DNA of 64,000 nucleotides from an uncultured Verrucomicrobiae bacterium. Its GTDB lineage: Bacteria; Verrucomicrobiota; Verrucomicrobiia; Limisphaerales; Palsa-1400. The notes under the pieces are model-generated. The model did no database searches. It was not told the DNA's origin and saw only the letters and a program-made list of their open reading frames with translations. The stretch lies in contig CAVXRD010000002.1 in assembly GCA_963764165.1 (NCBI GenBank), forward strand, positions 3,456,001 through 3,520,000. The letters are read 5' to 3'. Below, piece by piece: positions 11,272 to 58,186 of this stretch (position 1 is the stretch's first letter; each line of letters starts with the position of its first letter). Both the position numbers and the translations under genes were made by a program.

Positions 11272-11335
11272 TTTGGGCGGATACGCAGGTCCGCCCTACC
11301 AAATTATGGTAGGGCGGCGCTGCGTCGCCGCCCAA
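11272..11335. repeat. GTAG-family REP doublet (copy A)
   Basis: TTTGGGCGGATACGCAGGTCCGCCCTACC-AAATTAT-GGTAGGGCGGCGCTGCGTCGCCGCCCAA; 60/64 identical to 17135-17198. Confidence 0.85.
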
Positions 11336-11447
11336 ATATTATCGAGAGCTTCACCCACCTTCAATGATACCCTTCACCATTGACGGCTAAGCGTTCGCAT
11401 GTGCGAGCCGACCGCATTCAGAATTGCAACTATGCTGGCGACCCCTT

Positions 11448-11633
11448 TTACGATACTTTTCGCGCGCTTCGCTTTGGCGCGCGCTTCGCTTGCTGAGTCT
11501 TGACAGCGAACTTGCCTCCTGATTCTGCTTCGCAACGGCGAATGTCTTCGCCGATGGCGTGAACGTCAAAATTGAATCGCTTCGCGTAATCCGTGCGGCG
11601 GCGGTGGATTTCTTGAACAATTGGATCTTTCAT
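11448..11633 (-). CDS. Small hypothetical protein of a type often found beside toxin-antitoxin genes
   Basis: MKDPIVQEIHRRR...F.FD..AI..D pattern; 61 aa. Confidence 0.55.
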   Translation of the reverse strand: MKDPIVQEIHRRRTDYAKRFNFDVHAIGEDIRRCEAESGGKFAVKTQQAKRAPKRSARKVS

Positions 11634-11636
11634 ACT

Positions 11637-11891
11637 TCACAGCCGGAAGGGTTTTACTAGATCGTCGGGCATCCGGGGCGGTTCCCAATCAGTGGTGCCA
11701 CGAACAGACTCGTGCCAGTCTTTGAACTTCTGTTTGCGGCGGGCCAACGCGCTCTGACGGGACGTGGGGCGCGGGCGGACAGGGGACTTGACATTTGCGT
11801 GTCGTTTATCCAGCCAGCCCAACAATTCCCGCGCCTGCTCAGCAGACAATTTCTTGACCTTTTTAACTGCGAGTTCAACCGCGCTCATCAC
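11637..11891 (-). CDS. Small hypothetical protein (DUF2281/antitoxin-like)
   Basis: KKVKKLSAEQARELLGWLD helix pattern; 3 bp from the next gene. Confidence 0.5.
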   Translation of the reverse strand: MMSAVELAVKKVKKLSAEQARELLGWLDKRHANVKSPVRPRPTSRQSALARRKQKFKDWHESVRGTTDWEPPRMPDDLVKPFRL

Positions 11892-12051: not shown

Positions 12052-13671
12052 TCAAGTTCGCCTACGCCATCCTTCTACAACTCTCACTATGCCCTCGGCA
12101 ACGTTGTGCCAAGCCTCGGAACGTCGCGTCCAGTTCGCTACCGGCTTTCCGTCTCGCGGGAGCGCTTGCAGCTTTCCGAAAGGCGCCCTTTTCCAGAGGC
12201 AGTTCTTTAAGATAATTGGAATCACGCATGCCTCGCCCCTTTTATCTCGCTTTAATGCTGTCTTCATCTCGATCTCATAGCAGTAGTCGGAGGCCAAAAA
12301 ATCAGCGCTAACCAAAAGTAATATTACATCTGCGCTAGCGAACCTCTCGTCGATTACGTCCTTCCACCTATCGCCCGGCATGATCTTACGATCATGCCAC
12401 GGCGTAATAAGGCCGTTGCGATGTAGTGTCTTAAGGTGAACTGCTAAACTGTCCCTCAACTTCTCGTCGTTGTGTGAATAACTGAACACCAAATTAATCG
12501 CTTCTTCGCGTTTCTTCGTTGCTGGGCGCCGTCGTCGCCCTCGGCTTGCTGCTTTGGAAACTTTCTCGGTCAAAAATCCGGAAATAAATGCCCAATAAAG
12601 ACTACCGACTCGCCTTAGCGCCTTGTCTTCCCAAGAGGCGATTCCGGTAAACTGGAGCTCCTCACCGACACGGTCAGCATTAAACTCATCAAGGCCTTCT
12701 TTCTTTAAATGCCGCACTATATCACCAAAAGACAGCGTCTTCTTGGTTGCTAAAAGTCCGTGAATATGCCTTGCCTCCTCGGATAAAGAATTATACCAAA
12801 GCCTAAAGAGTTCTGCATGCTGTCTAACAAAGACCTCCGCAATTTGATTCAGAGGGGCGTCGCTTTCGGTATTATACGGCAATCTCCTAAGTAGGCCAGA
12901 TGTTAATCCCGCATGCCCACCAGTTTGCGCCAACAGCCATAATCCTAGGCGGTCAATAGGCGTCTTGGCTTGCCCCAATTTCAAAGCCTTGATTAATTGA
13001 TTAGTTCCGTCCTTGGAAAGGCTCCCTAAGAAGTGTTTGGAAGCCCGACTGCCTATAGGCGACGTGTCGTCTATACAAAGTCGATAAAGTTCCTGCGCTC
13101 CCGAAAAGAGCATCGTCACTCTTCCGCTCACGCCCAGATCGAGACCATAAAGCAGAGAAAACAAGTTGTCCTGGAATCCCCTAGGAAATCTCTCACCCAA
13201 TATCCTTTTCGACTCATCGAGCAAGTAAAGCAGTCGTATATGTCTAACTTTCGTCGCGTGAAGAATCCGCATCACTGCGTCCGCAAAAAATTCGACCGAG
13301 CTAGCGCCCTTTTTTATATTAAATGTTCGAATTTCAAGCAGAAATCCAGGCGCTATTCTCCTACATACGTCTACAGTTGCAGACACCAGCTTCTCAAAGA
13401 AGACCACGGGTGTTGCATCTTCTTGCAGTTCGAGCAAGTTTACGTAGATTGCAACGTCCCGATCTACGTTTTCTGGCGATGCAAAGCGCTCATTCACATC
13501 CCTTTGCAATTTGAGTAGAAACGTCGTCTTGCCCGACTGCCTCCCGCCAAATAGCAGAGCCGACTTGTTTTGCGTCAACGCGTATAAAACCTCGCTCGCA
13601 AATAAGTCCCTTCCAAAGCAAAAACCGGCGCTTGGAAGAATGCTGGGGCCTTTACTAGGACCGTGTCGCAT
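12052..13671 (-). CDS. STAND-like AAA+ ATPase with C-terminal TIR domain
   Basis: FGR motif, Walker A GGRQSGKT, Walker B LLYLLDE, TGGHAG; TIR motifs FSYSHND, WHDRKIMPG, LLVSADFLASDYCYEIE, VIPIIL. Confidence 0.88.
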   Translation of the reverse strand: MRHGPSKGPSILPSAGFCFGRDLFASEVLYALTQNKSALLFGGRQSGKTTFLLKLQRDVNERFASPENVDRDVAIYVNLLELQEDATPVVFFEKLVSATVDVCRRIAPGFLLEIRTFNIKKGASSVEFFADAVMRILHATKVRHIRLLYLLDESKRILGERFPRGFQDNLFSLLYGLDLGVSGRVTMLFSGAQELYRLCIDDTSPIGSRASKHFLGSLSKDGTNQLIKALKLGQAKTPIDRLGLWLLAQTGGHAGLTSGLLRRLPYNTESDAPLNQIAEVFVRQHAELFRLWYNSLSEEARHIHGLLATKKTLSFGDIVRHLKKEGLDEFNADRVGEELQFTGIASWEDKALRRVGSLYWAFISGFLTEKVSKAASRGRRRRPATKKREEAINLVFSYSHNDEKLRDSLAVHLKTLHRNGLITPWHDRKIMPGDRWKDVIDERFASADVILLLVSADFLASDYCYEIEMKTALKRDKRGEACVIPIILKNCLWKRAPFGKLQALPRDGKPVANWTRRSEAWHNVAEGIVRVVEGWRRRT

Positions 13672-16228
13672 AAGTGCGATGTAGCCATCGGTTAAGCAGC
13701 TCCATTGTTAACGAAGCCCGTTGATTCCGGACCGTGATGATTTGATACCCTTCCAAATGGCGCAAGCTCGTATGAAGCTTCTGCGAGCCTTGCATTAGCT
13801 GATTGATCGGCAGTGATCCGCCATTTCTCGATAACTTGAGGCAGGACTCACGTTCCTCGGGGTAGTCGCGTGTGAGTCTGGCAAAAATCTCCGCAAAATC
13901 CTTTTCGCCGACTGCATCGATATACCGATCAAGGACGTCTTCGACCATTGAGTGCGTAACGTGCAACGGACGGTCGGAGTACTGCTTCGCTATGAAACTG
14001 CACAGCTGGCGAGTGAAAAATGGGTGCCCGCCTGTTAGTTCGAAGATATAGTTACAGACCAAATCGTCATGATATCGAATTCCCATCCCACGACCAAGTG
14101 TGCGGATCATCTCTGTGCATTCCGCCGTATCGAAAAACTGCAGGTAAACCTCGCGAAAAAAATTGAACACGGGATTGTCTCGTTCGTCAAACTGGGGAAT
14201 CTCGCCGATTGAGGCGTTTGCGGCGGTTACCAGCATCGTGAATTGCTTAGTCTCTTGGCAAACTCCACGAAGGTATCCAAAAAAATCAAAAAAGCCCTTA
14301 AATCCCCGACCTAGCCTTGTGGGAAGAAGGCTTTCAACTTCATCGAGCAGAAGCACGACCTTTGGAGCGGGTGTCAAACTGCTCTTCTCAATCGCATGAA
14401 TCACCCGGCTGAGATCAGAGTCAAAGGCTGTTCCGACAGGTAGATCTTGGGGTACGTCTAGGTAGTCGGAATACTTTCCACCCAACCGCCATTGAAAATT
14501 AGAGAGCGGAAGCTGGCTGAAGCGTTGATTGAGGAGATTGGCCATGCGCCAATAAAGCCACCTTGCATCCGAAATTTCGGTTGGAACGCGTAAGAGATCG
14601 ACGTAAATTACGATATCCCCATTTTCGGACGAGCGAATTTGCGCCTCCTGCAGGAGTGATGTCTTCCCGACCTTGCGAAGTCCGAACAGCCCCGTAGGAG
14701 TGCTAGTGTGAATTGCGTCACGGATGTCAGCAAGTGCTTTTCCTCTACCAAAGAACCGGCGGCCTTTTACCGGCGAATTCAAAGCATAAAGATCGCGACG
14801 AAATAGCCAGTTATCTAAAATAGCTAATAACGTGCCGATCGGCTCCGCGGAGTTTTCGATTTCCTGTTGAGGAATGGGAACGATTGCCGTCCGTAATTCG
14901 CCTCTGTCCTCTATCCTGCTAAATAAGGCTCTTTGTACGGGCTCTGGTAGAGAGCCTACAACGAGCAACGCAACTTGATCATCTGCAACTCCATCGGGCA
15001 GTTGGCCCAGTCGTGTGTCCAGTGATTCTAGGTCAGCGATCGTTATGTTTGATTTGAACATACAGCGTATGAGCAACTGGCCCGTAAGACCATAGCTTTC
15101 GATCAACTCCACGCTATCTGTGCGAACAATAAAGTCTGCACCGACAGTTCCCGAAAAGACTTCGGCCTCAAGTATGTCTATGCCCCCATTGCGTAAAAAG
15201 TTAAAGACTAGATTGCCCCTATAATGTCCTCGGATTTTCGCTAAGTTGTGTGCTAGCAAATGCTGATGTAGTGGCCCCCCTGAACGGCCAAGCTGCGTGA
15301 ATCGTTCGATGCCTCCGTACGCGCGTATTGCATCTTCGTAGAATAATACTGATTCTCGTAGAGAGTCGGGCGTTCCCATGCGATAGTATGTATATCCTAG
15401 GGATGTAAGTATTCCCTTTTCACCTGCGCGATCTCCGCCTAGACAAAGCTGGAGAGCTGATCTCAAGTACTTAATGGCGTTATCGTATCTCTCAAGCGAT
15501 GCGGCCAACACTCCTGCCTCCTCCAAAATTTTCGTGCTGTGGGGAAACAAACGTATCCCCTCTTGGTATATCTTCAGAGCTTGTTCCTTTGAGTTGCGAT
15601 TCTTGTTGAATGCGGCATAACTCGATATTACGTGCTCCGTGGGAAACTCGAGCAAGGCTCGTCTATATAACCTATCGGCGTCGGGATATCGACGTTCTTC
15701 TCTGGCAAGAACGGCTTGCGCGAGCAAGTCGCGCGCGGGCCTTAGCACCGTATTTGGAAGGGAGATAATGACAACGTCCTGGGCCTGCGGTCCTTTGTCC
15801 GAATTGACTGGGCGGCAGCTGACCCTGTCCCCAACCGCCGGTAATACTGAGAGATCGGCGAGAAAACTGTAATGAAAGAAGAAGTCGCCACGTCTCGCTA
15901 TGCGAATGAAGCCAAAATGGCGTTCTGGACGTACCATTATAACTTCGCCTAAAACCATTTCGGTAATCTCTAAAGGTTCTGTACGCGAATCTAATTCTGG
16001 ATGCACATCTGTCGCCAACGTTCCGTTCTGCACTGCTTTTGTCGTGAAGATCACGCGATCGCCAGACTGCAACACTAACGTTGGGTCGCGAAGAGACTTT
16101 CGATGAACGAGAAATAGATCGGACGTCGCACCTTCTTCGTCTTCGGCCCGAATGTACCCGTATCCGCCTTTAGGCTCATACGTTTCGACCTGACCTCTTA
16201 AGTAATTTGGACTGTCTGTGTGAGGCAT
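13655..16228 (-). CDS. Multidomain protein: 2x cold-shock domain, TPR/HAT repeats, REase-like fold, STAND-like ATPase
   Basis: CSD motifs KGGYGYI..LFLVH and RHFGFI..FFFHYS..KGPQAQDV; TPR helices; FFGR, Walker A GLRKVGKT, Walker B VLLLDEVE, TGGHPF; start chosen at ATG 16228 (ORF extends to 16324). Confidence 0.85.
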   Translation of the reverse strand: MPHTDSPNYLRGQVETYEPKGGYGYIRAEDEEGATSDLFLVHRKSLRDPTLVLQSGDRVIFTTKAVQNGTLATDVHPELDSRTEPLEITEMVLGEVIMVRPERHFGFIRIARRGDFFFHYSFLADLSVLPAVGDRVSCRPVNSDKGPQAQDVVIISLPNTVLRPARDLLAQAVLAREERRYPDADRLYRRALLEFPTEHVISSYAAFNKNRNSKEQALKIYQEGIRLFPHSTKILEEAGVLAASLERYDNAIKYLRSALQLCLGGDRAGEKGILTSLGYTYYRMGTPDSLRESVLFYEDAIRAYGGIERFTQLGRSGGPLHQHLLAHNLAKIRGHYRGNLVFNFLRNGGIDILEAEVFSGTVGADFIVRTDSVELIESYGLTGQLLIRCMFKSNITIADLESLDTRLGQLPDGVADDQVALLVVGSLPEPVQRALFSRIEDRGELRTAIVPIPQQEIENSAEPIGTLLAILDNWLFRRDLYALNSPVKGRRFFGRGKALADIRDAIHTSTPTGLFGLRKVGKTSLLQEAQIRSSENGDIVIYVDLLRVPTEISDARWLYWRMANLLNQRFSQLPLSNFQWRLGGKYSDYLDVPQDLPVGTAFDSDLSRVIHAIEKSSLTPAPKVVLLLDEVESLLPTRLGRGFKGFFDFFGYLRGVCQETKQFTMLVTAANASIGEIPQFDERDNPVFNFFREVYLQFFDTAECTEMIRTLGRGMGIRYHDDLVCNYIFELTGGHPFFTRQLCSFIAKQYSDRPLHVTHSMVEDVLDRYIDAVGEKDFAEIFARLTRDYPEERESCLKLSRNGGSLPINQLMQGSQKLHTSLRHLEGYQIITVRNQRASLTMELLNRWLHRTYATRS

Positions 16229-16478
16229 GGATGCACGAACTGTGTTGCAAATTGCAAGCTTCGTCAAGGGCAAAGGTATCACCCCGGTTCCCGGTGTCAA
16301 TTCAATTGATCGTGCTAACCACATATTTCACATGTGATGTGATTATGCGGGAGTGACCTCTTTTTCGGAGCCTTTTATACAAGACTAAAACCGCAGACAG
16401 CGGCTTTGAAAAACGGTTGAGGAATATAGGATTGACACGCCTCAGCGCCGACATTTGGTCCTCGAACCGTGAACAATA

Positions 16479-17134: not shown

Positions 17135-17198
17135 TTTGGGCGGACACGCAGGTCCGCCCTACCAAATTGAGGTAGGGCGGTGCTGCGTCGCCGCCCAA
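17135..17198. repeat. GTAG-family REP doublet (copy B)
   Basis: Direct repeat of 11272-11335 with 4 mismatches. Confidence 0.85.
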
Positions 17199-17685
17199 TA
17201 ATTTTCCCTGTTTCACGCCCGCATTTCATCGCAATTGCCAAGCCAGGAATTCTCCCGCGTCGGTCGCGTTCTCCAGCCCGCTTGCATGGTTTCGGAACCC
17301 TCATTTCCTGCGTTAGGTCGTTCCAGATTCAATTTTTCGCATTTTTTTCCAAAAATCGCGCCGAAAACACTCTGGTAGGTTTTTCATCCGGCCCATGCCG
17401 TGTCAAAGTGCGGTCATGTGCATGGAGCAGATGTCGCCTCTACGAGGCTTTAATTCTAAAGGGATCGCCGACTACAAAGATGTCGCGCCTCTGGCGCTGC
17501 TGAGTAATGATATGCGCCCTCAACCGGATTTGGTCGGAAAGAACCGTTACACTCTATTGCACCCTCTTGCACCCTTGATTTTTAGTGAATCGAATTGCAC
17601 CCAGCATTCCTCGCTTTCGCCCCACCCGGCGGGGAGAGAGAATTGTATGGTTGCGGGCTTTTCAAAATCGTCCCATCATGCGCGG

Positions 17686-32559: not shown

Positions 32560-32919
32560 GTTTGAAAAAAAAATCCGCGCAATCCAAATTTTCGAAATTC
32601 TTAAACCTTTTGGGCTGGCGCCCCTAGGAGCGTTTTTCGATCCGCGATTTTCACGATTTCTACCTTGCTTTGCCTTTGATTACCTGTCGCTGATAAATCA
32701 AAAATCGGCCTTGGCGGGGCAAGGCTGCCAATGAGCCTGCTAACGGTCAGCGGCGCTTCGTCTTTCGGCTAATTGCGGCTCATGGCCCAACTGCGGATTA
32801 TCGCACCCGTGAAATTTCCTTCGGACTCATTGACAAATGACGCGGAGCCATCAATGGAACCGGCCAGCCCCGTCGTCTCGTCCGGGCGCACCGCAAAAAC
32901 GCATTTGTTGACAACCAAT

Positions 32920-35466
32920 ATGAAAAAATCCCTGGTCTTCATCCTCGTCTCAGCCGCCCTTGTTGCAAACATTCATGCGGGCATTTTCAACGTCATTCAC
33001 AGCTTCGGCTCGCCGCTGACCAACGTCGGCGTTGAGCCCGCGGGTGGCGTGGTGCCAGGGCCGGACGGGACGCTCTACGGCGTCGATTTCAACGGCGGCA
33101 TCAACAATTACGGAACTATCTACAGCTTCAATGCCAATGGGTGCTACGCGCTCTGGAATTTCGCGGATTCGGGTGATGGCGCATACCCGGTCGGCGACCT
33201 GATTTTGGACGGGACCACGCTTTATGGGATTACGTCAGGAAACGGCGGGGCGGGCGGATTGTTCAAAATTCAAACGGACGGAACTGGGTTCTCGGTATTG
33301 CACAATTTTACCAGTTCAACCGACGGCTCGGCTGCCGCGGCAGGATTGGTCATGAGCGGGAATGTGTTCTACGGAGTTTGCCCAGCCGGCGGCTCCGGCG
33401 GCACTGGCACTGTCTTCAAAATGAACAGCGACGGGAGTGGCTTTCAGGTCCTGCACCATTTCACGAGCATTGATCCGGCAGCGTTTACGAATGCGGACGG
33501 CGCTTATCCGGAAGGCAAGCTGGTGTTGGATGGGAACACTCTTTACGGCACGACTTACCAGGGCGGGAATAATCAATTCGGCTCCGTTTTCTCCGTGCAA
33601 ATTGATGGAAGCGCTTTTGCTGTGCTGCACGTCTTCGATTCGTCCGAAGGGATGCTGCCAGTGGCTGGATTGACTCTTAGCGGAACAAAACTTTTCGGCA
33701 CGACCTATTACGGGGGAACCGATGGCAACGGCACGATTTTCACGCTCAACACCGATGGCTCAGGCTACACAACCCTCTATTCCCTGGCCAACGGTGGCAA
33801 CGATGGCATCGGCCCGCGAGCAACTCTTTTGTTGAGCGGAAATACGCTGTTTGGCTCCGCCTATGAAGGCGGTGCGAATGGCAACGGAACGCTGTTCTCG
33901 TTGCAGACGGACGGAACGGGATTTAATTTGTTTTACACCTTTTCAGCGCTTGATCCCAACTACTACGACAATAATGACGGAGCCAATCCCATTTCCGAAC
34001 TGCTGCTGTATCATGGAGTTTTGTGCGGAACCGCGCCGGGTGGAGGTTTGATTGCCACGCCGAGTTATTCTCAGAACTTCGGCACCCTGTTCCAGGTGAA
34101 TCCCGACGGCACCGGATTCTCGACCGACTATTTCTTCGATAACACCAGTGCGTCGACGGATGGGTATAATCCAGAGTGTCCGCTCGTGATTTCCGGCAAC
34201 ACAGTCTATGGGATGACTTATCTTGGAGGGCTCGATAATTACGGCGGCGTTTTCAAGGTGAACCGCGATGGGACCGGTTTCGTTCTGTTGCATTCCTTTG
34301 GTTTTGCCGAAGGCGCGTACCCGGTGGGAGGATTGGCCCTGGCTGGAAACACTCTTTACGGCACCACCATCAGCGGCGGCGCATTTGTCACCAACGGCGT
34401 CGTCTTTTCGATGAATACAGACGGCACTGGCTATTCTGTCCTGCACTCCTTTGCGGGTGGAACCGAGGGGTATGAGCCGTCCGCGGGAGTCACAATTGGC
34501 GGCGGCGCGCTTTATGGCACGACTTACAACGGCGGATCCAACGGTTACGGCACGGTCTACAGGCTGGACTTGAACACGCTTCAGCTTCAGACACTTCTCC
34601 ATTTCGCGGTGACAAATGGCGCGCATCCAAACTCCCCGCTCGTGCTGTCGGGCAGCACTCTTTACGGAGAAACTCCAGCGGGCGGCGTTGGCGCGGGCAA
34701 CTTGTTTAAAATGCAAACTGACGGCGCCGGCTTCACCAATTTGCGCGTCTTTTCGTTCACCACTGGCGAGGGTTCGCAAGGCGAAGGCGAAACGCCAGAG
34801 GGCGGGCTCATTCTCAACGGCGGCACGCTCTATGGAACCTCGGCCAACGGCGGGGAGAATCACACCGGGAATGTGTTCAAAATCAACACCGACGGCACCG
34901 GCTATGAGACGTTGTTCAATTTTGACCCGACGGCCTATAACGGAATCACCCAGACAAACTCAGACGGCGCGAACCCTGGCTCCGCGCTGGCGCTCTACGG
35001 CAACACGCTCTACGGCACGGCAACGTACGGGGGCGCTTACGGATACGGTACGCTTTTTGAGGTCAATACGAATGCAAACGGGGAGGCCGGCTTCACCAAT
35101 CTGCACACCTTCACGAGCTGGACGGGCTTTGAGTCACCGGTGGATGGCGGGTATCCGGGCGGAGGCGTCCTGTTCTCGGAAGGCCAATTGCTCGGAGTGG
35201 CAGGAGTGGGCGGAATCTTCGATTACGGGGTGGCATACCGTTACGACATCGTGCCGCCCCTGCACATTGCCGTCGTGAGCAACACACCTTTCATTTATTG
35301 GCAGCCCGACGGCGAAAATCACACGCTGCAATTCACGATGGACATCTCCACCGGCCCGTGGTCGAACGCTCCGGCCATCAACTTCACCAATATCGACAAC
35401 AACCGGGGCGTTCTCATGACGAACAAGCCTTTGCCGGCGCCCATTTTTTTCCGATTGATGGATTAG
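32920..35466 (+). CDS. Secreted GloVer-type tandem-repeat protein
   Basis: Signal peptide; many repeats of DG..P...L...G.TLYGTT..GG....GTVF....DG.G...LH.F. Confidence 0.88.
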   Translation: MKKSLVFILVSAALVANIHAGIFNVIHSFGSPLTNVGVEPAGGVVPGPDGTLYGVDFNGGINNYGTIYSFNANGCYALWNFADSGDGAYPVGDLILDGTTLYGITSGNGGAGGLFKIQTDGTGFSVLHNFTSSTDGSAAAAGLVMSGNVFYGVCPAGGSGGTGTVFKMNSDGSGFQVLHHFTSIDPAAFTNADGAYPEGKLVLDGNTLYGTTYQGGNNQFGSVFSVQIDGSAFAVLHVFDSSEGMLPVAGLTLSGTKLFGTTYYGGTDGNGTIFTLNTDGSGYTTLYSLANGGNDGIGPRATLLLSGNTLFGSAYEGGANGNGTLFSLQTDGTGFNLFYTFSALDPNYYDNNDGANPISELLLYHGVLCGTAPGGGLIATPSYSQNFGTLFQVNPDGTGFSTDYFFDNTSASTDGYNPECPLVISGNTVYGMTYLGGLDNYGGVFKVNRDGTGFVLLHSFGFAEGAYPVGGLALAGNTLYGTTISGGAFVTNGVVFSMNTDGTGYSVLHSFAGGTEGYEPSAGVTIGGGALYGTTYNGGSNGYGTVYRLDLNTLQLQTLLHFAVTNGAHPNSPLVLSGSTLYGETPAGGVGAGNLFKMQTDGAGFTNLRVFSFTTGEGSQGEGETPEGGLILNGGTLYGTSANGGENHTGNVFKINTDGTGYETLFNFDPTAYNGITQTNSDGANPGSALALYGNTLYGTATYGGAYGYGTLFEVNTNANGEAGFTNLHTFTSWTGFESPVDGGYPGGGVLFSEGQLLGVAGVGGIFDYGVAYRYDIVPPLHIAVVSNTPFIYWQPDGENHTLQFTMDISTGPWSNAPAINFTNIDNNRGVLMTNKPLPAPIFFRLMD

Positions 35467-35630
35467 TGGCAGGTTTCGGGATGTTTGACTTGCAAAATCA
35501 GGGGAACGGCTCCACTGTAAGCGGCATTGCGTTTCAGTTTATAAAAAGTCAAAATCGAGGAGCCATGCCCAATTCGTCGACCGTATTCCCTGCAACCGTA
35601 TTGTCTTTATCCACCGGCCTTCCATCCCCC

Positions 35631-38600
35631 ATGCCGAAATGGATGCCGCGCCTGGGCGTGGTCCGGCGGCTGATCTTGGCAGCCGTCGTGCTGCTGGCGG
35701 GCCTCCACCCCTCGTTTGCGGGGACATGGGCCGCTCTCAGCAGCGCCCCGCCCGTCGGTGTGAATCATGCGATGCTGTTAACCGATGGAACGATTTACAC
35801 GGACAACGGCTCCGGCCAATGCTGCCGCCTGACGCCGGACATCCACGGCAATTACCAATTCGGAACCTGGACTCATCTGGCCACGATGAATGATCCGCGG
35901 CTGTTCTTCACCTCGGAAATGCTCACCAACGGGAATATTTTCGTGGCCGGCGGGGAGTATGGCTCGGGAGGGCGGCACGCGGAGCTGTTTGACCCGCTCA
36001 GAAACACATGGTCGAAGATTCCTGATCCACTGCAGGCGCCGATATTTTCGGACACCATCGGAAAGTTGCTTCCGAACGGAAATGTTCTCACCGCTCCAGT
36101 GAGCTTATTCGGCCCATGCTTGATTTACAACGCCCTGACCAATGGCTGGCAAACCGCCGCCACCGCGAATAACCAAAATGAAGTCTGCTGGGTCAGAATG
36201 TCCAACGACTGCATCCTGACCGTCGACACCGGCACACAAAACGCGGAACATTACGCGCCAACCTTGAACGCCTGGGAGATTGACCACACTGTTCCTGTCG
36301 CGATTTATGGCTATGGCGCGGAGCTGGGCGCGGGATTTTTGCTGCCGAACGGAAAAGTGTTCTATATCGGAGCCTCGACCAACACCGCGATTTACACATC
36401 GGGCGCGAGCGTATCGGCCGCCGGCAGCTGGGTGGCCGGCCCGCCGATGGTTTTCGGGGCGAACCAGTTGGGCGCGGTCGATGCGCCGGCCGCGATGATG
36501 GTGACTGGAAACATTCTGTGCGCACTGGGGCCGATTGGCGGCTTCAACGGCCCAACGAGCTTCTATGAATACAATTACCTTTCCAACGCCTTCACGGCCG
36601 AAAGCGCCCCGGGGGGTGGCAGTTCTTACTCCGCTTCCGCCCCGTTTGGAACCAGCATGCTTTGCCTCCCCAACGGGACCGTGCTTTTTATCGGCGGCCA
36701 AAATACCCAATCGCTGTACGTCTACACGCCGTCCGGCGCCCCTCTGGCGCAGGGCCAGCCGGGCATCAGTTCGATCGCCGAAAATGCCGACGGGTCGTTT
36801 CTGCTGACCGGCACCAATCTTAATGGCATCAGCGCCGGCGCCGCTTACGGGGACGACGAACAGATGGACAGCAATTACCCGCTCGTGCGCATGACGAATT
36901 CATCCACCGGGTATGTCTACTATGGCCGGACCGCGAACTGGAGCAGCAGCAGTGTCATGACCGGAAGCAAGGTGATCACGACGAAGTTTACGGTTCCGAC
37001 GAACTTGCCCGCTGGCACTTACTCGCTGGTGGCCGTGGCCAACGGCAACGCATCCGCGCCGACGAATTTTGTGTACTCGCCTATCTCCGCTCCAACCGGG
37101 CTGAGCGCCATCAGCGGAAGCAACAATTTGGTCCGGCTGAGCTGGAATGCGAGCGCCAATGCCACTGCTTACAATGTAAAGGTCTGCTCCAATAGCACCG
37201 GTTATTTCACCACTCTCGCCACGGTCACCGGCACAACTTACACCAATGCCGGCCTCACCAATGGGGTCATCTATTACTACAAAGTCGCGGCCATTGGCGC
37301 CAACGGCCCCAGTGTCGACTCCGCGGCGGTCAGCGCCACTCCCTCGGGGCCAACGCCGATTCCGGGCGCGATCTCGGTCAGTTTGGCGTCGTCTTACAAC
37401 CGCGTCGGCATCTCCACCGATGGCCGCAGCATCAGCGGTTCCGGACTCGACGGCAGCGGCAATGTGTTTTCAGCGAATCTCCTTGGCCCCGACATTATTT
37501 GGAACAACCTCGTCTTCACCTTCGGGCCTGCCAATGCCTCGGATTCGGTTTATTGCAATGGCCAGACCATCAACCTTCCTCAATTGCAAGTCAACACGCT
37601 GCAATTCCTCGCCACGGCGGTGAATGGCGGCCAGGTCTCCGAGACGTTTACTGTAAATTATACGGATGGATCGAGCACCAACTTCACCCAAAGCTTCAGC
37701 GACTGGGCAAATCCCGAATCATTCGAAGGTGAAACCCCGCTCATCAACATGTATCATCGCAATACGAGCAGCGGCGGCCTGTCACTCCTGAACGTGACGC
37801 TGAATGCCTATATCTTTGTTTTGGACAGGACCAAGACTGTCATGAGCGTCACGCTGCCTAGCGACTCGAGTTTGATTCTATTTGCCATGGACGAGTCACT
37901 TGATCCCGCTCCGGTTGCACTGGATGCCTATTACAACCGCGCTGGCATCACCAGCGACGGCACCGCCTTCACGAATCCACCCACCGGCGGCGTGGATGGC
38001 GACGGCAATGCCTACTCGGGCACGCTGCTCGGACCCACGCACACTTGGACCAACACACTTTTTGAATTCGGTTCGCAGGATGAGACGAACGTGATTAGCT
38101 GCGAAGGAGAGGTCGTGGCGCTGCTCCCTGGAAACTATTCCAAGCTGCGAATGATCGCTGCCGCCGTCAACGGAAGCCAATCCTCGAAATCATTTATGGT
38201 GACGTATGCCGACGGCAGCACCACAACCTTCATCCAAAGCTTTAGCGATTGGTCCACTCCCGCGGTTTTTTCGGGCGAAACCAAGGCTATTCCCATGAGC
38301 TACCGCAATAGCAGCGACGGATCGTCGTCGCAAAACTCCACTTTTTATCTATATGGTTACACGTTTGTGCTCAGTCCAACCAAGCAAGCCGTCAGCATCA
38401 CGCTGCCCACGGATAAAAATCTTATAATCGCCGCCATGACGGAGGTGCCCGATTATCCGCCCTCGTTTGCAGCCAACGCTTTCACCCTCCCTTTCGCGAC
38501 GGTGGGCTCGCCTTACAGCGCCAGCGTCGCTTCCGATGCAACGGAATTGAGCGGTGATCCAATAACTTATACCGAATTAAGCGGCCCAGGCTGGGTAACG

Positions 38601-39206
38601 GTGTCCCCCGGCGGCGCTGTCACCGGCACGCCGTCCTCGTCGGATCTGAATTTGAACACCCTTTACATCAGCGCCACAAATGCAAATGGGATGTCGAATA
38701 GCGCCGTCTTCTATATTTACGTCGACGCTCCGCCCTACTTCCTGGAGGATCCGTTCGCGGAGCCCGACGCAACCGCCGGACAACTCTACTCGGTGAATAT
38801 CGCCACCAACGCGGCGGATCCGAACCCCACCGATGCGCTGACGTTCGGTTATCTGGCCGGGCCTACCTGGCTGAACGTCGCCTCCAACGGAGTCCTGTCG
38901 GGAACGCCGAACTCTTCCGATGTCGGCACCAATGCCATTGAGGTCAGCGTGGCCGACCCTTACGGCTTGTCGGACAGCGCGATCGTGGACATCATTGTCG
39001 ATCCTGCGCCAGCAATCATGCAATCGCTCTCGATGCAAGGCGGGCAATTAGTATTGACGTGGGCGGGAGGCGCCGGGCCGTTCCAAGTTCAAACGACGAC
39101 CGACCTGACGCAGCCATGGCAGGACGTTGGCGCGCCTATCAGCACGAATTCGATTGTGATCTCGCCCACCAACCAGGCGGCATTCTACCGAATCGTCGGC
39201 GATTGA
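35631..39206 (+). CDS. Large secreted protein: Kelch-like propeller, FN3, duplicated beta-sandwich, Ig repeats
   Basis: Signal peptide; L.NG..F..GG repeats; FN3 LSW...ATAYNV...YYYKVAA; internal duplication YNR.GI..DG...G.DG.GN; GP.W....G..GTP Ig repeats; start uncertain. Confidence 0.75.
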   Translation: MPKWMPRLGVVRRLILAAVVLLAGLHPSFAGTWAALSSAPPVGVNHAMLLTDGTIYTDNGSGQCCRLTPDIHGNYQFGTWTHLATMNDPRLFFTSEMLTNGNIFVAGGEYGSGGRHAELFDPLRNTWSKIPDPLQAPIFSDTIGKLLPNGNVLTAPVSLFGPCLIYNALTNGWQTAATANNQNEVCWVRMSNDCILTVDTGTQNAEHYAPTLNAWEIDHTVPVAIYGYGAELGAGFLLPNGKVFYIGASTNTAIYTSGASVSAAGSWVAGPPMVFGANQLGAVDAPAAMMVTGNILCALGPIGGFNGPTSFYEYNYLSNAFTAESAPGGGSSYSASAPFGTSMLCLPNGTVLFIGGQNTQSLYVYTPSGAPLAQGQPGISSIAENADGSFLLTGTNLNGISAGAAYGDDEQMDSNYPLVRMTNSSTGYVYYGRTANWSSSSVMTGSKVITTKFTVPTNLPAGTYSLVAVANGNASAPTNFVYSPISAPTGLSAISGSNNLVRLSWNASANATAYNVKVCSNSTGYFTTLATVTGTTYTNAGLTNGVIYYYKVAAIGANGPSVDSAAVSATPSGPTPIPGAISVSLASSYNRVGISTDGRSISGSGLDGSGNVFSANLLGPDIIWNNLVFTFGPANASDSVYCNGQTINLPQLQVNTLQFLATAVNGGQVSETFTVNYTDGSSTNFTQSFSDWANPESFEGETPLINMYHRNTSSGGLSLLNVTLNAYIFVLDRTKTVMSVTLPSDSSLILFAMDESLDPAPVALDAYYNRAGITSDGTAFTNPPTGGVDGDGNAYSGTLLGPTHTWTNTLFEFGSQDETNVISCEGEVVALLPGNYSKLRMIAAAVNGSQSSKSFMVTYADGSTTTFIQSFSDWSTPAVFSGETKAIPMSYRNSSDGSSSQNSTFYLYGYTFVLSPTKQAVSITLPTDKNLIIAAMTEVPDYPPSFAANAFTLPFATVGSPYSASVASDATELSGDPITYTELSGPGWVTVSPGGAVTGTPSSSDLNLNTLYISATNANGMSNSAVFYIYVDAPPYFLEDPFAEPDATAGQLYSVNIATNAADPNPTDALTFGYLAGPTWLNVASNGVLSGTPNSSDVGTNAIEVSVADPYGLSDSAIVDIIVDPAPAIMQSLSMQGGQLVLTWAGGAGPFQVQTTTDLTQPWQDVGAPISTNSIVISPTNQAAFYRIVGD

Positions 39207-44038: not shown

Positions 44039-45338
44039 CATGCGTGTCCAGTTATAAGTGAAACAAAGGCAATGTGTTACGACTTTCCGAATCGTTTTCG
44101 GAAATGGCGTTTGTTGCAAGCAGCTCACCCAGAGGGGTTTGCTCAAACGCGCTGACGCTGAAAATTTGCAGGATTTCATACAGACTTTTCTCCAATTTCC
44201 AATGCTTTTTGGCGATGGCCACCAAGAGGTAAGTGCAAATGGCGCACCATATCTGGCATTGAATGGCGTTGCGGGAATGGCCGATGAAGCGGCGGATCCG
44301 CAGGTGCTGCTTGATCCATTTGAAGAACAGCTCCACCCTCCATCGCTTTTTGTATAATTCACAAATGGTCAGAGGAGGCAGTTCGAAATCATTGGTCAGA
44401 AACACCAGCGTGCGCTCTTCCAGCGCGTCCCGAAAAACCACTCGCCTGAGCGGAACCGGATACCGGCCTTTGGAGTCTTCGCCAGTCAAGCGAATGGTTT
44501 GATCGCACCGCAAACCGCCATCCTTGTCAACGACGCGAGATGCCTTCACCCTGAATTTGATCTGCCGCTTGTTGCGCACGACGAATTTGGCCCCGGCGGT
44601 TTCCACATTCATCAGCCTGGCGAAATCCAAATAGGCCCGGTCCATCACATGGAAGGCGCCGCGCTCCAAGGGAATCTGGTCGAGCATTTTCACGTCGGGA
44701 ACAGAGGCTTCCGTGAGCGCCGCCCACACCGGCAGGTCCCCCCGGAAGGACAGCATCGTGTGGAGCTTCATCGCGCCGGCGCGGGACCGTCCCCAATAGG
44801 CCCAAGGAAAGATTTTGATGCTCAGATGAATGATGGAGCTGTCCAAAGCCAGCGCGACGGCGGGAAAATCCGGGTCTGCGTTTTCAGGCTGGTAAAGCGC
44901 GCGGGCGCGCCGCATCAGCACTTCGGCCACTCCGGCAAAGACCCGCCAATCCCGGTTTTCGTTGGAGTAAGCCAGATTGGTCCGTGTGATCCTTCCCCGA
45001 AAGCCCAAATGATACTGCATGCGTGGACGGGCCTGCAGGCAGGCAACAATGTCGCGCAGACTCTCACGGTAAGTCAATTGTCCGAAACACAGAGCCAGGA
45101 AATGGTCGTAGGCGCTGAACGAGCGCGAGGAGCGCTTCATGGGAAAGGCCTCAGCGCAACGCCGAAATTCGGACGGATAAAGGAGATCGGTTAATTGGGA
45201 AAACACGTTTTGGTGGGAAGGCATTTGCCCAGCAAACCCGCTTCCAAACTGGATATCGAGAACAAACCCCAAATTCCCCAACCCTGCGATAATCAACGAC
45301 TTTGGGCGCGTTGGCAACGCCTTAACTGGACACGAGTG
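44039..45338 (-). mobile_element. IS4-family insertion sequence, 1300 bp
   Basis: TIRs CATGCGTGTCCAGTTA / TAACTGGACACGAGTG; flanks CGCTTCGCT / CGCTCCGCT (9-bp target duplication, 1 mismatch). Confidence 0.9.
44052..45224 (-). CDS. IS4-family transposase (DUF4372 N-terminus)
   Basis: QLTYRESLRDI, LDSS, MDRAY, YKKRWRVELFFKWIKQHL (YREK signature). Confidence 0.93.
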   Translation of the reverse strand: MPSHQNVFSQLTDLLYPSEFRRCAEAFPMKRSSRSFSAYDHFLALCFGQLTYRESLRDIVACLQARPRMQYHLGFRGRITRTNLAYSNENRDWRVFAGVAEVLMRRARALYQPENADPDFPAVALALDSSIIHLSIKIFPWAYWGRSRAGAMKLHTMLSFRGDLPVWAALTEASVPDVKMLDQIPLERGAFHVMDRAYLDFARLMNVETAGAKFVVRNKRQIKFRVKASRVVDKDGGLRCDQTIRLTGEDSKGRYPVPLRRVVFRDALEERTLVFLTNDFELPPLTICELYKKRWRVELFFKWIKQHLRIRRFIGHSRNAIQCQIWCAICTYLLVAIAKKHWKLEKSLYEILQIFSVSAFEQTPLGELLATNAISENDSESRNTLPLFHL

Positions 45339-45432
45339 CGCTCCGCTCAACCACCGGCTACTAGCTTGCATCCCGGCCGGGATGCGCCGACCGCACTTGG
45401 CGGACAGGTTGGTTGGCGAGCACGCTCCACTC

Positions 45433-57256: not shown

Positions 57257-58186
57257 ATGATAAAATTGTGGCCAAAAAAAACAACAGAACTCGGCGCGAA
57301 AAGACTTTTTGCGCGAGTTGTGAGTTTGATCTCGCTGGGCTTTTTTCTCAGTCATGCCTGTGTTGCCCAAGAGTTCGAGGTCGCGGGGACTTTGACTGTC
57401 ACGACGGAGCGGCGAGAGAAGGTGGTGCAGAAAACGACTCGGACATTCGTTGTCGATGTAAAGAATTCGCAATTCAAAATGGATTCTGTGTCGGGAGATT
57501 CGAATTCTCGCCTCACGTATGTCCTAGATGGTCAAAAACTTTACCAGCTTTCGCTGGACCACGTGCCGCAAAACGCAGCCTCATATCAATTTCCAAGTTT
57601 TGTTCGGCCCGCTTCGATGCCCATAGCGGACGATGGCTCTTGCCATAATGAACTCTGGCTTGCCTATGCGTCGCAAAACTTCTTCAAGAGTTTTACGAAC
57701 GAACTGGTGCTGGCTTTGTGGTCATCCGGTCCGAATTTCCCATTCGTTCCATACCTGAACCTCCAGTTTACGACAAACCAGGACAAATTGGGATTGCCGA
57801 AAGCTGCGACCTATATCGATCCAACGTATCCCGGCAAGATTTATACCAATGCAACCTACCGAGTGCTTGCAACAACCAACATCAATGGAATGCTGATACC
57901 CATGGAATTCGAATTTGTTCGCTACGCCTATGACTCTCCGGGCCGCCTTCTCCCATTTGAGACATTTCACGGGTTGGTCTCGCAGGTAGCGACCAACGTA
58001 GGCAACGCGTCATTACAGCCAGCTTTTCTCGGGATCTCGGACGTTTATGATTATCGCCCTTTGGCCCGGGAATTCCTGAGCCCAAAGATGACCAATCGTG
58101 ACTACGTTCATTATAGGGTCACAAATGGCATCTGGCCCCAAGTATCGGCGCCGGTCGGCTCCCCTGCACAGAAAGGCGCGTATTAA
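57257..58186 (+). CDS. Exported hypothetical protein
   Basis: Signal peptide; 309-aa ORF in a lower-GC stretch. Confidence 0.65.
   Translation: MIKLWPKKTTELGAKRLFARVVSLISLGFFLSHACVAQEFEVAGTLTVTTERREKVVQKTTRTFVVDVKNSQFKMDSVSGDSNSRLTYVLDGQKLYQLSLDHVPQNAASYQFPSFVRPASMPIADDGSCHNELWLAYASQNFFKSFTNELVLALWSSGPNFPFVPYLNLQFTTNQDKLGLPKAATYIDPTYPGKIYTNATYRVLATTNINGMLIPMEFEFVRYAYDSPGRLLPFETFHGLVSQVATNVGNASLQPAFLGISDVYDYRPLAREFLSPKMTNRDYVHYRVTNGIWPQVSAPVGSPAQKGAY

Follow-up and report, generated by a model that had tools for sequence, protein, structure and literature searches.

A tandem STAND ATPase pair with cold-shock and TPR domains on one protein and an exchangeable effector on the other: a candidate split, inverted NLR-like system

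The closest described relative of the gene pair examined here is nSTAND2, a mobile two-gene operon of tandem MNS-like STAND genes, the second with a variable C-terminal effector that is most often HEPN or GT4, and for which a hetero-toroid was predicted (PMC8195603; statements on cited papers refer throughout to the parts of each that were accessible). Its effector-bearing STAND has eroded NTP-binding motifs, an arginine finger is placed in both subunits, and TPRs lie between a winged helix-turn-helix and the HEPN domain of gene 2; the description is a computational prediction, and we found no experimental test of it (PMC8195603). The pair reported here occupies about 4.2 kb in the window, that is, the whole 64,000-nucleotide stretch of contig CAVXRD010000002.1, from an uncultured Verrucomicrobiae bacterium, that was analyzed. 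Gene 1 joins cold-shock domains (CSDs), TPRs and a nuclease-fold domain to a STAND ATPase, and gene 2 joins a second STAND ATPase to a TIR domain. We found the pair to be a real, well-conserved and apparently uncharacterized two-ATPase system, which we read, at a probability of about 0.6, as a split and inverted NLR-like abortive-infection pair whose co-assembly would cluster the C-terminal effector.

As in nSTAND2, the genes are adjacent with a STAND module in each, and gene 2 ends in a variable effector, likely HEPN in 127 of the 156 close-clade sequences and GT4-conflict in another relative (P0314). In contrast to nSTAND2, the effector-bearing ATPase is intact (Walker A Lys in 118/118 and Walker B DE in 121/121 gene-2 sequences), the TPRs stand on gene 1 alongside the CSDs while gene 2 has none, and the gene 2 effector follows the core directly, with tails of ~155 residues. 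Moreover, the best PF20702 match in the genome reached 14 bits (gene 1) against a cut-off of 24, with no match in the window's gene 2 at E up to 1; elsewhere in the family, one distant gene 2 (L027) scored above the cut-off and 20 of 42 gene-1 proteins matched at E up to 0.1. Five family accessions were absent from the accessible Kaur 2021 files (PMC8195603), and three from those of Kaur 2020. Judged by these sequence features, the pair would work as nSTAND2 does, its closest description, but falls outside its membership. An earlier note on this DNA, made from the letters alone, had recognized no named system; we likewise found no named experimental one, although the two-STAND design itself had already been predicted (PMC8195603).

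Avs (AVAST) proteins and bacterial NLRs share with the pair a STAND ATPase, TPRs, swappable effectors and activation by oligomerization, but Avs proteins are single chains with the effector N-terminal and the sensor C-terminal, whereas here there are two chains in the reverse order (PMC13581612), an inversion already pointed out in the earlier note. In the accessible descriptions, each characterized bacterial STAND receptor is one chain, with a C-terminal sensor that binds a phage protein or responds to changes in host proteins. The survey of Lee et al. 2026 clustered C-terminal sensors of at least 400 residues and gives 589 clades; its main text, as accessible, mentions neither cold-shock domains nor N-terminal sensors, and nine family accessions were absent from its smaller supplements, the larger tables being outside the check (PMC13581612). 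A reversed pair of this kind would escape classification in a survey based on C-terminal sensors, and the ATPase domains of the family may be among the 589 clades. SAMD9/Avs9, of which SAMD9 is described as a nucleic-acid sensor, is alike by domain description in its AlbA_2 RNase, STAND, TPR and OB-fold domains, but is one chain in the opposite order with a SIR2 domain (PMC12680541). Swt1-like HEPN domains have also been listed with 'STAND-ATPase, TPR, S1' fusions (Anantharaman et al. 2013, PMC3710099). Compared by description alone, those proteins share the Swt1-type HEPN, STAND, TPR and an OB-fold RNA-binding domain and may overlap this family, but they are fusions with an N-terminal HEPN and C-terminal cold-shock-like domains, and a two-gene pair is not described in the accessible text (PMC3710099). 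CoCoNuT (PMC11090510) and RemAIN/HepS (PMC13043305) were considered, from the accessible parts of both papers, and rejected.

Searches of the full-text literature, with subscription papers and bioRxiv supplements outside their reach, found no description of a CSD-TPR-STAND gene paired with a STAND-effector gene. System calls were made with PADLOC 2.0 (2023) and NCBIfam 20.0, in which no system model matched: Avs models gave nothing at E up to 0.1, and what matched did so at the level of domains (CSD, ThsB-like TIR, retron Se72 effector). The Se72 effector match was to the CSD, at 35.5 bits against a cut-off of 82, and there was no reverse transcriptase among the flanking open reading frames (ORFs) scanned. 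Matches to ATPase_2, AAA_35 and nSTAND models suggest that the MNS clade of Npun2340/2341, a clade in which genes habitually stand in tandem, is probably the parent ATPase clade.

Domain calls rest on Pfam profile searches of both translations, which assigned to gene 1 a CSD in two stretches (E 2.8e-13), TPRs and ATPase_2 of the archaeal type, and to gene 2 AAA_22 and TIR_2 (52.9 bits, cut-off 28). The genes, both on the minus strand, overlap by 17 bp within a block whose GC content, 49.4%, falls below the genome value of 56.8% and ranks in the lowest 0.8% among 1,674 equal windows. The overlap and the AT-richer composition were thus as the earlier note had described them; every motif it quoted was present in the translations, and the start it gave for gene 1, position 16228, is Met33, where the homologues begin.

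In an AlphaFold2 model of gene 1 (mean predicted local distance difference test score, pLDDT, 84; residues 1-37 below 50), a pair of OB barrels is followed by a TPR block and an alpha/beta domain, then by the ATPase and an end resembling a winged helix; Foldseek matches of the model included the tandem CSDs of Unr, ORC/Cdc6 (ORC2) and, among plant NLRs, Roq1 and NRC2. The alpha/beta domain, modeled by itself at pLDDT 90, was aligned by VIA-align with AF1548 (Z 8.6, root-mean-square deviation 3.3, 106 aligned), RPB5 (8.4), BspD6I (8.1) and FokI (7.9), followed by NucS, Can2, Cap4 and Card1; a Z of about 8 is modest, and most of the top rows agree on one PD-(D/E)xK fold. The position of D397 holds Asp in 93 and Glu in 24 of 120 sequences, and R420, C421, F423 and K424 replace ExK. 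With the first Asp kept and ExK replaced by R-C-x-F-K, residues 368-507 are, on the model, likely a dead PD-(D/E)xK nuclease, so that the "alpha/beta linker" of the earlier note remains alpha/beta but is refined to this nuclease fold lacking its ExK motif. A PDB sequence search and the ESM Atlas gave no identity for the domain, the Atlas labeling the family cluster only as 'hypothetical protein'. The ATPase is the most conserved part of gene 1 (64% mean identity), with the Walker A K/T and Walker B DE invariant in 120/120. As to the aromatic motifs noted earlier for the CSDs, CSD2 retains its aromatic RNP motifs, while the aromatic F71 of CSD1 is a minority residue, found in 6/107 of the family.

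The gene 2 ATPase module is a paralogue of that of gene 1 (hhalign probability 99, E 2.9e-18). R209, present in 121/121 gene-2 sequences, has N721-F/Y722 and no Arg at its counterpart in gene 1; assigned from sequence only, with the register between the two uncertain by one column, it is a one-sided candidate arginine finger that hints at an asymmetric ring. In the TIR domain, E468 aligns with the conserved Glu of the bacterial TIR structures Cat1 and 7uxr, and we take this position to be the catalytic glutamate. The earlier note had reported the glutamate as retained within SDYCYEIE; it is, and the conserved one is the second Glu of that motif.

The search with gene 1 returned 151 proteins, the 120 listed being 41-66% identical over most of their length, and scans yielded 77 loci from GTDB, 79 from metagenomes and 1 from viral contigs. 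With membership of the CSD/TPR family set at a gene-1 profile score of at least 400 bits (n = 86 loci), gene 2 lay directly downstream of gene 1 in 80/86, the other six ending too soon; counted by clusters at 90% identity the figure was 62/64, with none unpaired where room existed, so that the pairing is indeed conserved. To judge by record titles, members come from Acidobacteria, Beta- and Gammaproteobacteria, Spirochaetia, Verrucomicrobia, Planctomycetes, Cyanobacteria and Chloroflexota; in Pseudomonas aeruginosa the two proteins have neighboring accessions, and an Enterobacterales cluster of gene 2 has 34 members. The family is spread over many phyla and is very patchy: no full-length copy was found among 40 relatives of the window genome, and of 401 genomes of Pseudomonas species the one with a copy was the seed itself. 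GC content of the system was below that of its flanks in 21/23 loci. Four copies (L021, L026, L035 and L030) were split into several ORFs, by decay or assembly error.

In a tree of 80 ATPase cores (midpoint root, sampling seeded by the gene-1 query), the 43 gene-1 types and 37 gene-2 types formed separate clades, that of gene 1 with support of 1.0. In wider relatives that share the two-ATPase layout, the head of gene 1 is WD40, beta-propeller, long TPR, tubulin-like or NB-ARC, and tandem STAND pairs with varied gene-1 heads, and with TIR, Cap12-TIR, EAD7 or other gene-2 tails, were observed at L060, L063, L067, L073, L075, L076, L046 and L074. We also noted a gene-1-type ATPase fused directly to HEPN in a single chain in myxobacterial/deltaproteobacterial metagenome-assembled genomes (L040:635-2746 and L042:9875-12061); no gene-2 partner was detected for either, and L040 keeps the nuclease-fold domain. 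L057 has a kinase where these two carry HEPN.

The census of the gene 2 effector slot covered 203 representatives whose cores are near-complete. Besides the likely HEPN domains, the close clade (n = 156) comprised AlbA_2 in 7, an unassigned tail of ~220 residues in 7, TIR in 2, singletons in 6 and truncated ends in 7; P0281 (TIR) and P0314 (GT4) are N-terminally partial and stand outside that count. A search with the gene-2 ATPase alone showed a non-TIR C-terminal domain common to 109 of the 120 matches listed, with an R-x4/5-H motif in 106/109. This motif, together with sub-threshold Pfam matches, is the basis for regarding the default effector of the family as likely a Swt1-type HEPN RNase; it counts against the call that the Pfam matches, seen in 4/9 scanned (E 9e-4 to 6e-3), all fell below the cut-off. 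Among distant members the effectors were cyclase, Cap12-type TIR, calcineurin-like phosphoesterase, EAD7, CHAT, OLD-TOPRIM and pPIWI nuclease domains.

In a FastTree reconstruction of 93 sequences, for which about half of the HEPN rows had been removed, the window's gene 2 grouped with P0281, P0122 (unknown tail) and P0314, and the other TIR protein, P0288, was placed elsewhere. This topology suggests at least two gains of TIR and at least three of AlbA_2, and the grouping places the window copy in a subclade that, on this tree, swaps effectors often. The census and tree bear out the effector swapping on gene 2 that the earlier note had anticipated. Its view of TIR activity and NAD+ depletion as the defining output did not hold up: the TIR is a rare local swap and not part of the family core, the family default being the likely HEPN RNase. 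No other copy of the window's TIR was found. P0122 is apparently the partner of the gene 1 nearest to that of the window. We further observed a conserved tail of ~200 residues, PD-(D/E)xK-like by eye and with no Pfam match, on myxobacterial gene 2 proteins (L041, L049, L052, L053 and L055); the tails of L012, L016, L020, L099, L142 and P0122 (~180-250 residues) gave no informative Pfam family in those scanned.

A role against phage or mobile elements is what we regard as likely. One HEPN-type pair (L163), whose gene 2 is 99.8% identical to a Klebsiella pneumoniae protein, lies in a lambdoid prophage, with the replication genes on one side and the Q/holin/endolysin region on the other, and the region after the replication genes is a common accessory slot, as for HepS (PMC13043305). 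A 428-aa gene (phrog_30399; L163:13175-14461) adjoins this pair on the opposite strand of the prophage cargo slot and is possibly a second defence gene. The prophage copy had no blastn match among the E. coli genomes searched. A patchy distribution, low GC content, carriage by a prophage, copies with frameshifts and interchanged toxin-type effectors are typical of conflict systems.

Other results weigh against such a role. Contrary to the enrichment in defence islands that the earlier note would have led one to expect, PADLOC matches near the system (11/18 loci, 24/263 ORFs) showed none over control windows (12/16 windows, 28/252 ORFs), in a small test with crude greedy ORF calls that counted 18 of 24 prepared loci, leaving out L028 and five distant ones, and whose 16 fixed control windows came from only six of the same genomes. 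Searches of 50,697 phage and 72,556 plasmid records gave no full-length match, and only one viral contig had the system. In the window, the neighbors of the pair are the housekeeping genes dxr and hisB, which lay on separate contigs in 4/4 genus relatives, so that these yielded no empty insertion site for comparison. Three control windows (L177, L185 and L188) held defence islands by chance, namely an Hma-like system with Dsr2, type I restriction-modification, and PsyrTA with a type III methyltransferase and IetA.

If the pair is a split and inverted NLR, gene 1 would sense infection via its N-terminal module of two CSDs, TPRs and dead nuclease, its ATPase would nucleate a mixed ring with gene 2, and the ring would bring the C-terminal effectors of gene 2 together; once clustered, the TIR of the window copy would cleave NAD+, whereas most relatives would cleave RNA. 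HEPN, TIR and class III cyclase domains are switched on by dimerization or clustering, and because it is these that are swapped into the slot, an ATP-driven hetero-oligomer of both proteins is probable. We also think it probable that the window copy acts by NAD+ cleavage leading to growth arrest. As the trigger we commit, tentatively and at somewhat below even odds, to single-stranded nucleic acid in exposed form, which the CSDs together with the dead nuclease fold would hold; TPR binding of a phage protein is a doubtful alternative.

The same two-subunit defence could instead rely on the TPRs to recognize a phage protein as in Avs, with the CSDs accessory, for example delivering RNA to an ancestral HEPN RNase. 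TPRs were detected in 53/53 complete gene-1 copies, of which 21 had two CSDs, 24 had one and 8 had none detected, five of these eight pairing with cyclase effectors and probably forming one clade. With their number varying from 0 to 2, the CSDs are not essential to the design, which tells against our choice of trigger, and the sensing of single-stranded RNA or DNA put forward in the earlier note is weakened and remains a guess. Wider relatives fill the same slot with WD40, beta-propeller or long TPR arrays, and Avs, too, has mostly TPR-like sensors, which bind phage proteins (PMC13581612). However, the TPR block spans only ~170 residues, far below the 400-aa-plus Avs sensors, and the TIR copy, whose effector is no RNase, keeps its CSDs at normal divergence: they are 56% and 60% identical to those of its nearest relative, against 65% and 52% in pairs at equal ATPase distance, with no sign, at this level of comparison, of decay or relaxed selection. 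We consider TPR recognition rather unlikely. That gene 1 is a guard or antitoxin restraining a constitutively active gene 2 until infection displaces or destroys it would suit its strictly upstream position, the overlapping reading frames and the extra HTH_17 at the N terminus of cyanobacterial and Chloroflexota gene 1, autoregulated antitoxins often carrying an HTH. The invariant ATPase motifs and high conservation of the gene 1 ATPase fit an active switch, and single-chain ATPase-HEPN versions exist (L040, L042), which leaves this account improbable.

The TIR might also produce a diffusible signal, such as a Thoeris-like cyclic ADP-ribose isomer, in place of depleting NAD+: its top PADLOC match was the ThsB model (193.8 bits, 142 of 319 positions, model positions 3-144), and relatives place the signaling-type outputs cyclase and EAD7 in the effector slot. 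Since the ThsA model PDLC00407, the sole one tried, had no match in the 97%-complete genome, with none adjacent to the pair, such a signal is less likely; the window's TIR has no other copy, the family effectors are mostly direct-acting and nuclease-type, and we give the idea a low probability. Least probable in our estimation is a switch in stress response or RNA quality control, with which the housekeeping neighbors, the cold-shock domains and the lack of island enrichment agree, but which fits poorly with the frameshifts in L021, L026 and L035, the patchiness, the low GC, the copy in a prophage and the interchange of unrelated toxin-type effectors.

Should the split, inverted NLR-like reading be right, bacteria would have, in this reversed design of two chains, a counterpart of the sensor/helper NLR pairs of eukaryotes, with NAIP/NLRC4 and the plant sensor-helper pairs as the analogy in co-assembly. 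In its broadest form the proposal is that split, inverted NLRs are widespread in bacteria as a class, that dedicated sensor ATPases with CSD-TPR, WD40, propeller or tubulin-like heads co-assemble with dedicated helper ATPases offering between them ten or more effector tails, and that the CSD family is triggered by single-stranded nucleic acid in place of a phage protein; as a whole this would be unlikely, if conceivable. The nucleic-acid trigger would be a surprising result, if true. The wider class of tandem STAND pairs merits its own survey, and with HEPN, AlbA_2 and TIR versions occurring naturally on one chassis, activation could be studied apart from what the effector does. The family is experimentally tractable: it measures about 4.2 kb, and P. 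aeruginosa and a Klebsiella-type prophage both carry copies.

Table 1. Positions in the window of the two genes, their domains and key residues.
Feature	Position	Strand	Remarks
Gene 1, likely sensor subunit	13655..16228	-	~857 aa from Met33, start by homologue alignment
Gene 1, longest open frame	13655-16324	-	889 aa, ATG upstream
Cold-shock domain 1	16001..16198	-	aa 43-108; Pfam CSD; tandem-CSD Unr among top Foldseek matches
Cold-shock domain 2	15767..15955	-	aa 124-186; aromatic RNP1/RNP2 motifs conserved
TPR/HAT-like helical repeats	15230..15742	-	aa 195-365; Pfam TPR_14 above cut-off, HAT matches weak, model
PD-(D/E)xK restriction-nuclease-fold domain, likely inactive	14804..15223	-	aa 368-507; model, VIA-align, residue counts
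STAND/ORC-Cdc6-like ATPase, likely winged-helix end	13667..14797	-	aa 510-886; motif counts, Foldseek
Gene 1 Walker A	14660-14683	-	
Gene 2, likely effector subunit	12052..13671	-	539-aa ORF
Second STAND module	12568..13650	-	aa 8-368; paralogous to that of gene 1
Gene 2 Walker A, intact	13525-13548	-	
R209, candidate arginine finger	13045-13047	-	invariant
TIR domain in swappable effector slot	12070..12495	-	aa 393-534; Pfam TIR_2, structure alignment, effector census
TIR conserved Glu E468	12268-12270	-	

Just downstream of gene 2, two small basic ORFs of 61 and 84 aa occupy 11448-11633 and 11637-11891 on the minus strand; the 84-aa one had no family match, and both resemble orphan antitoxin-like genes. 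Two 72-nt palindromic repeats resembling repetitive extragenic palindromes, 90% alike, lie at 11272-11343 and 17135-17206; they were ruled out as island ends, their flanks matching up to 47-58 places in the genome. Farther along the window, a 309-aa low-GC ORF with no NCBIfam match at 1e-25 lies at 57257-58186, the region 32773-39206 holds a GloVer-repeat protein overlapping a 1302-aa ORF that has no NCBIfam match, and an IS4 transposase is encoded at 44052-45371.

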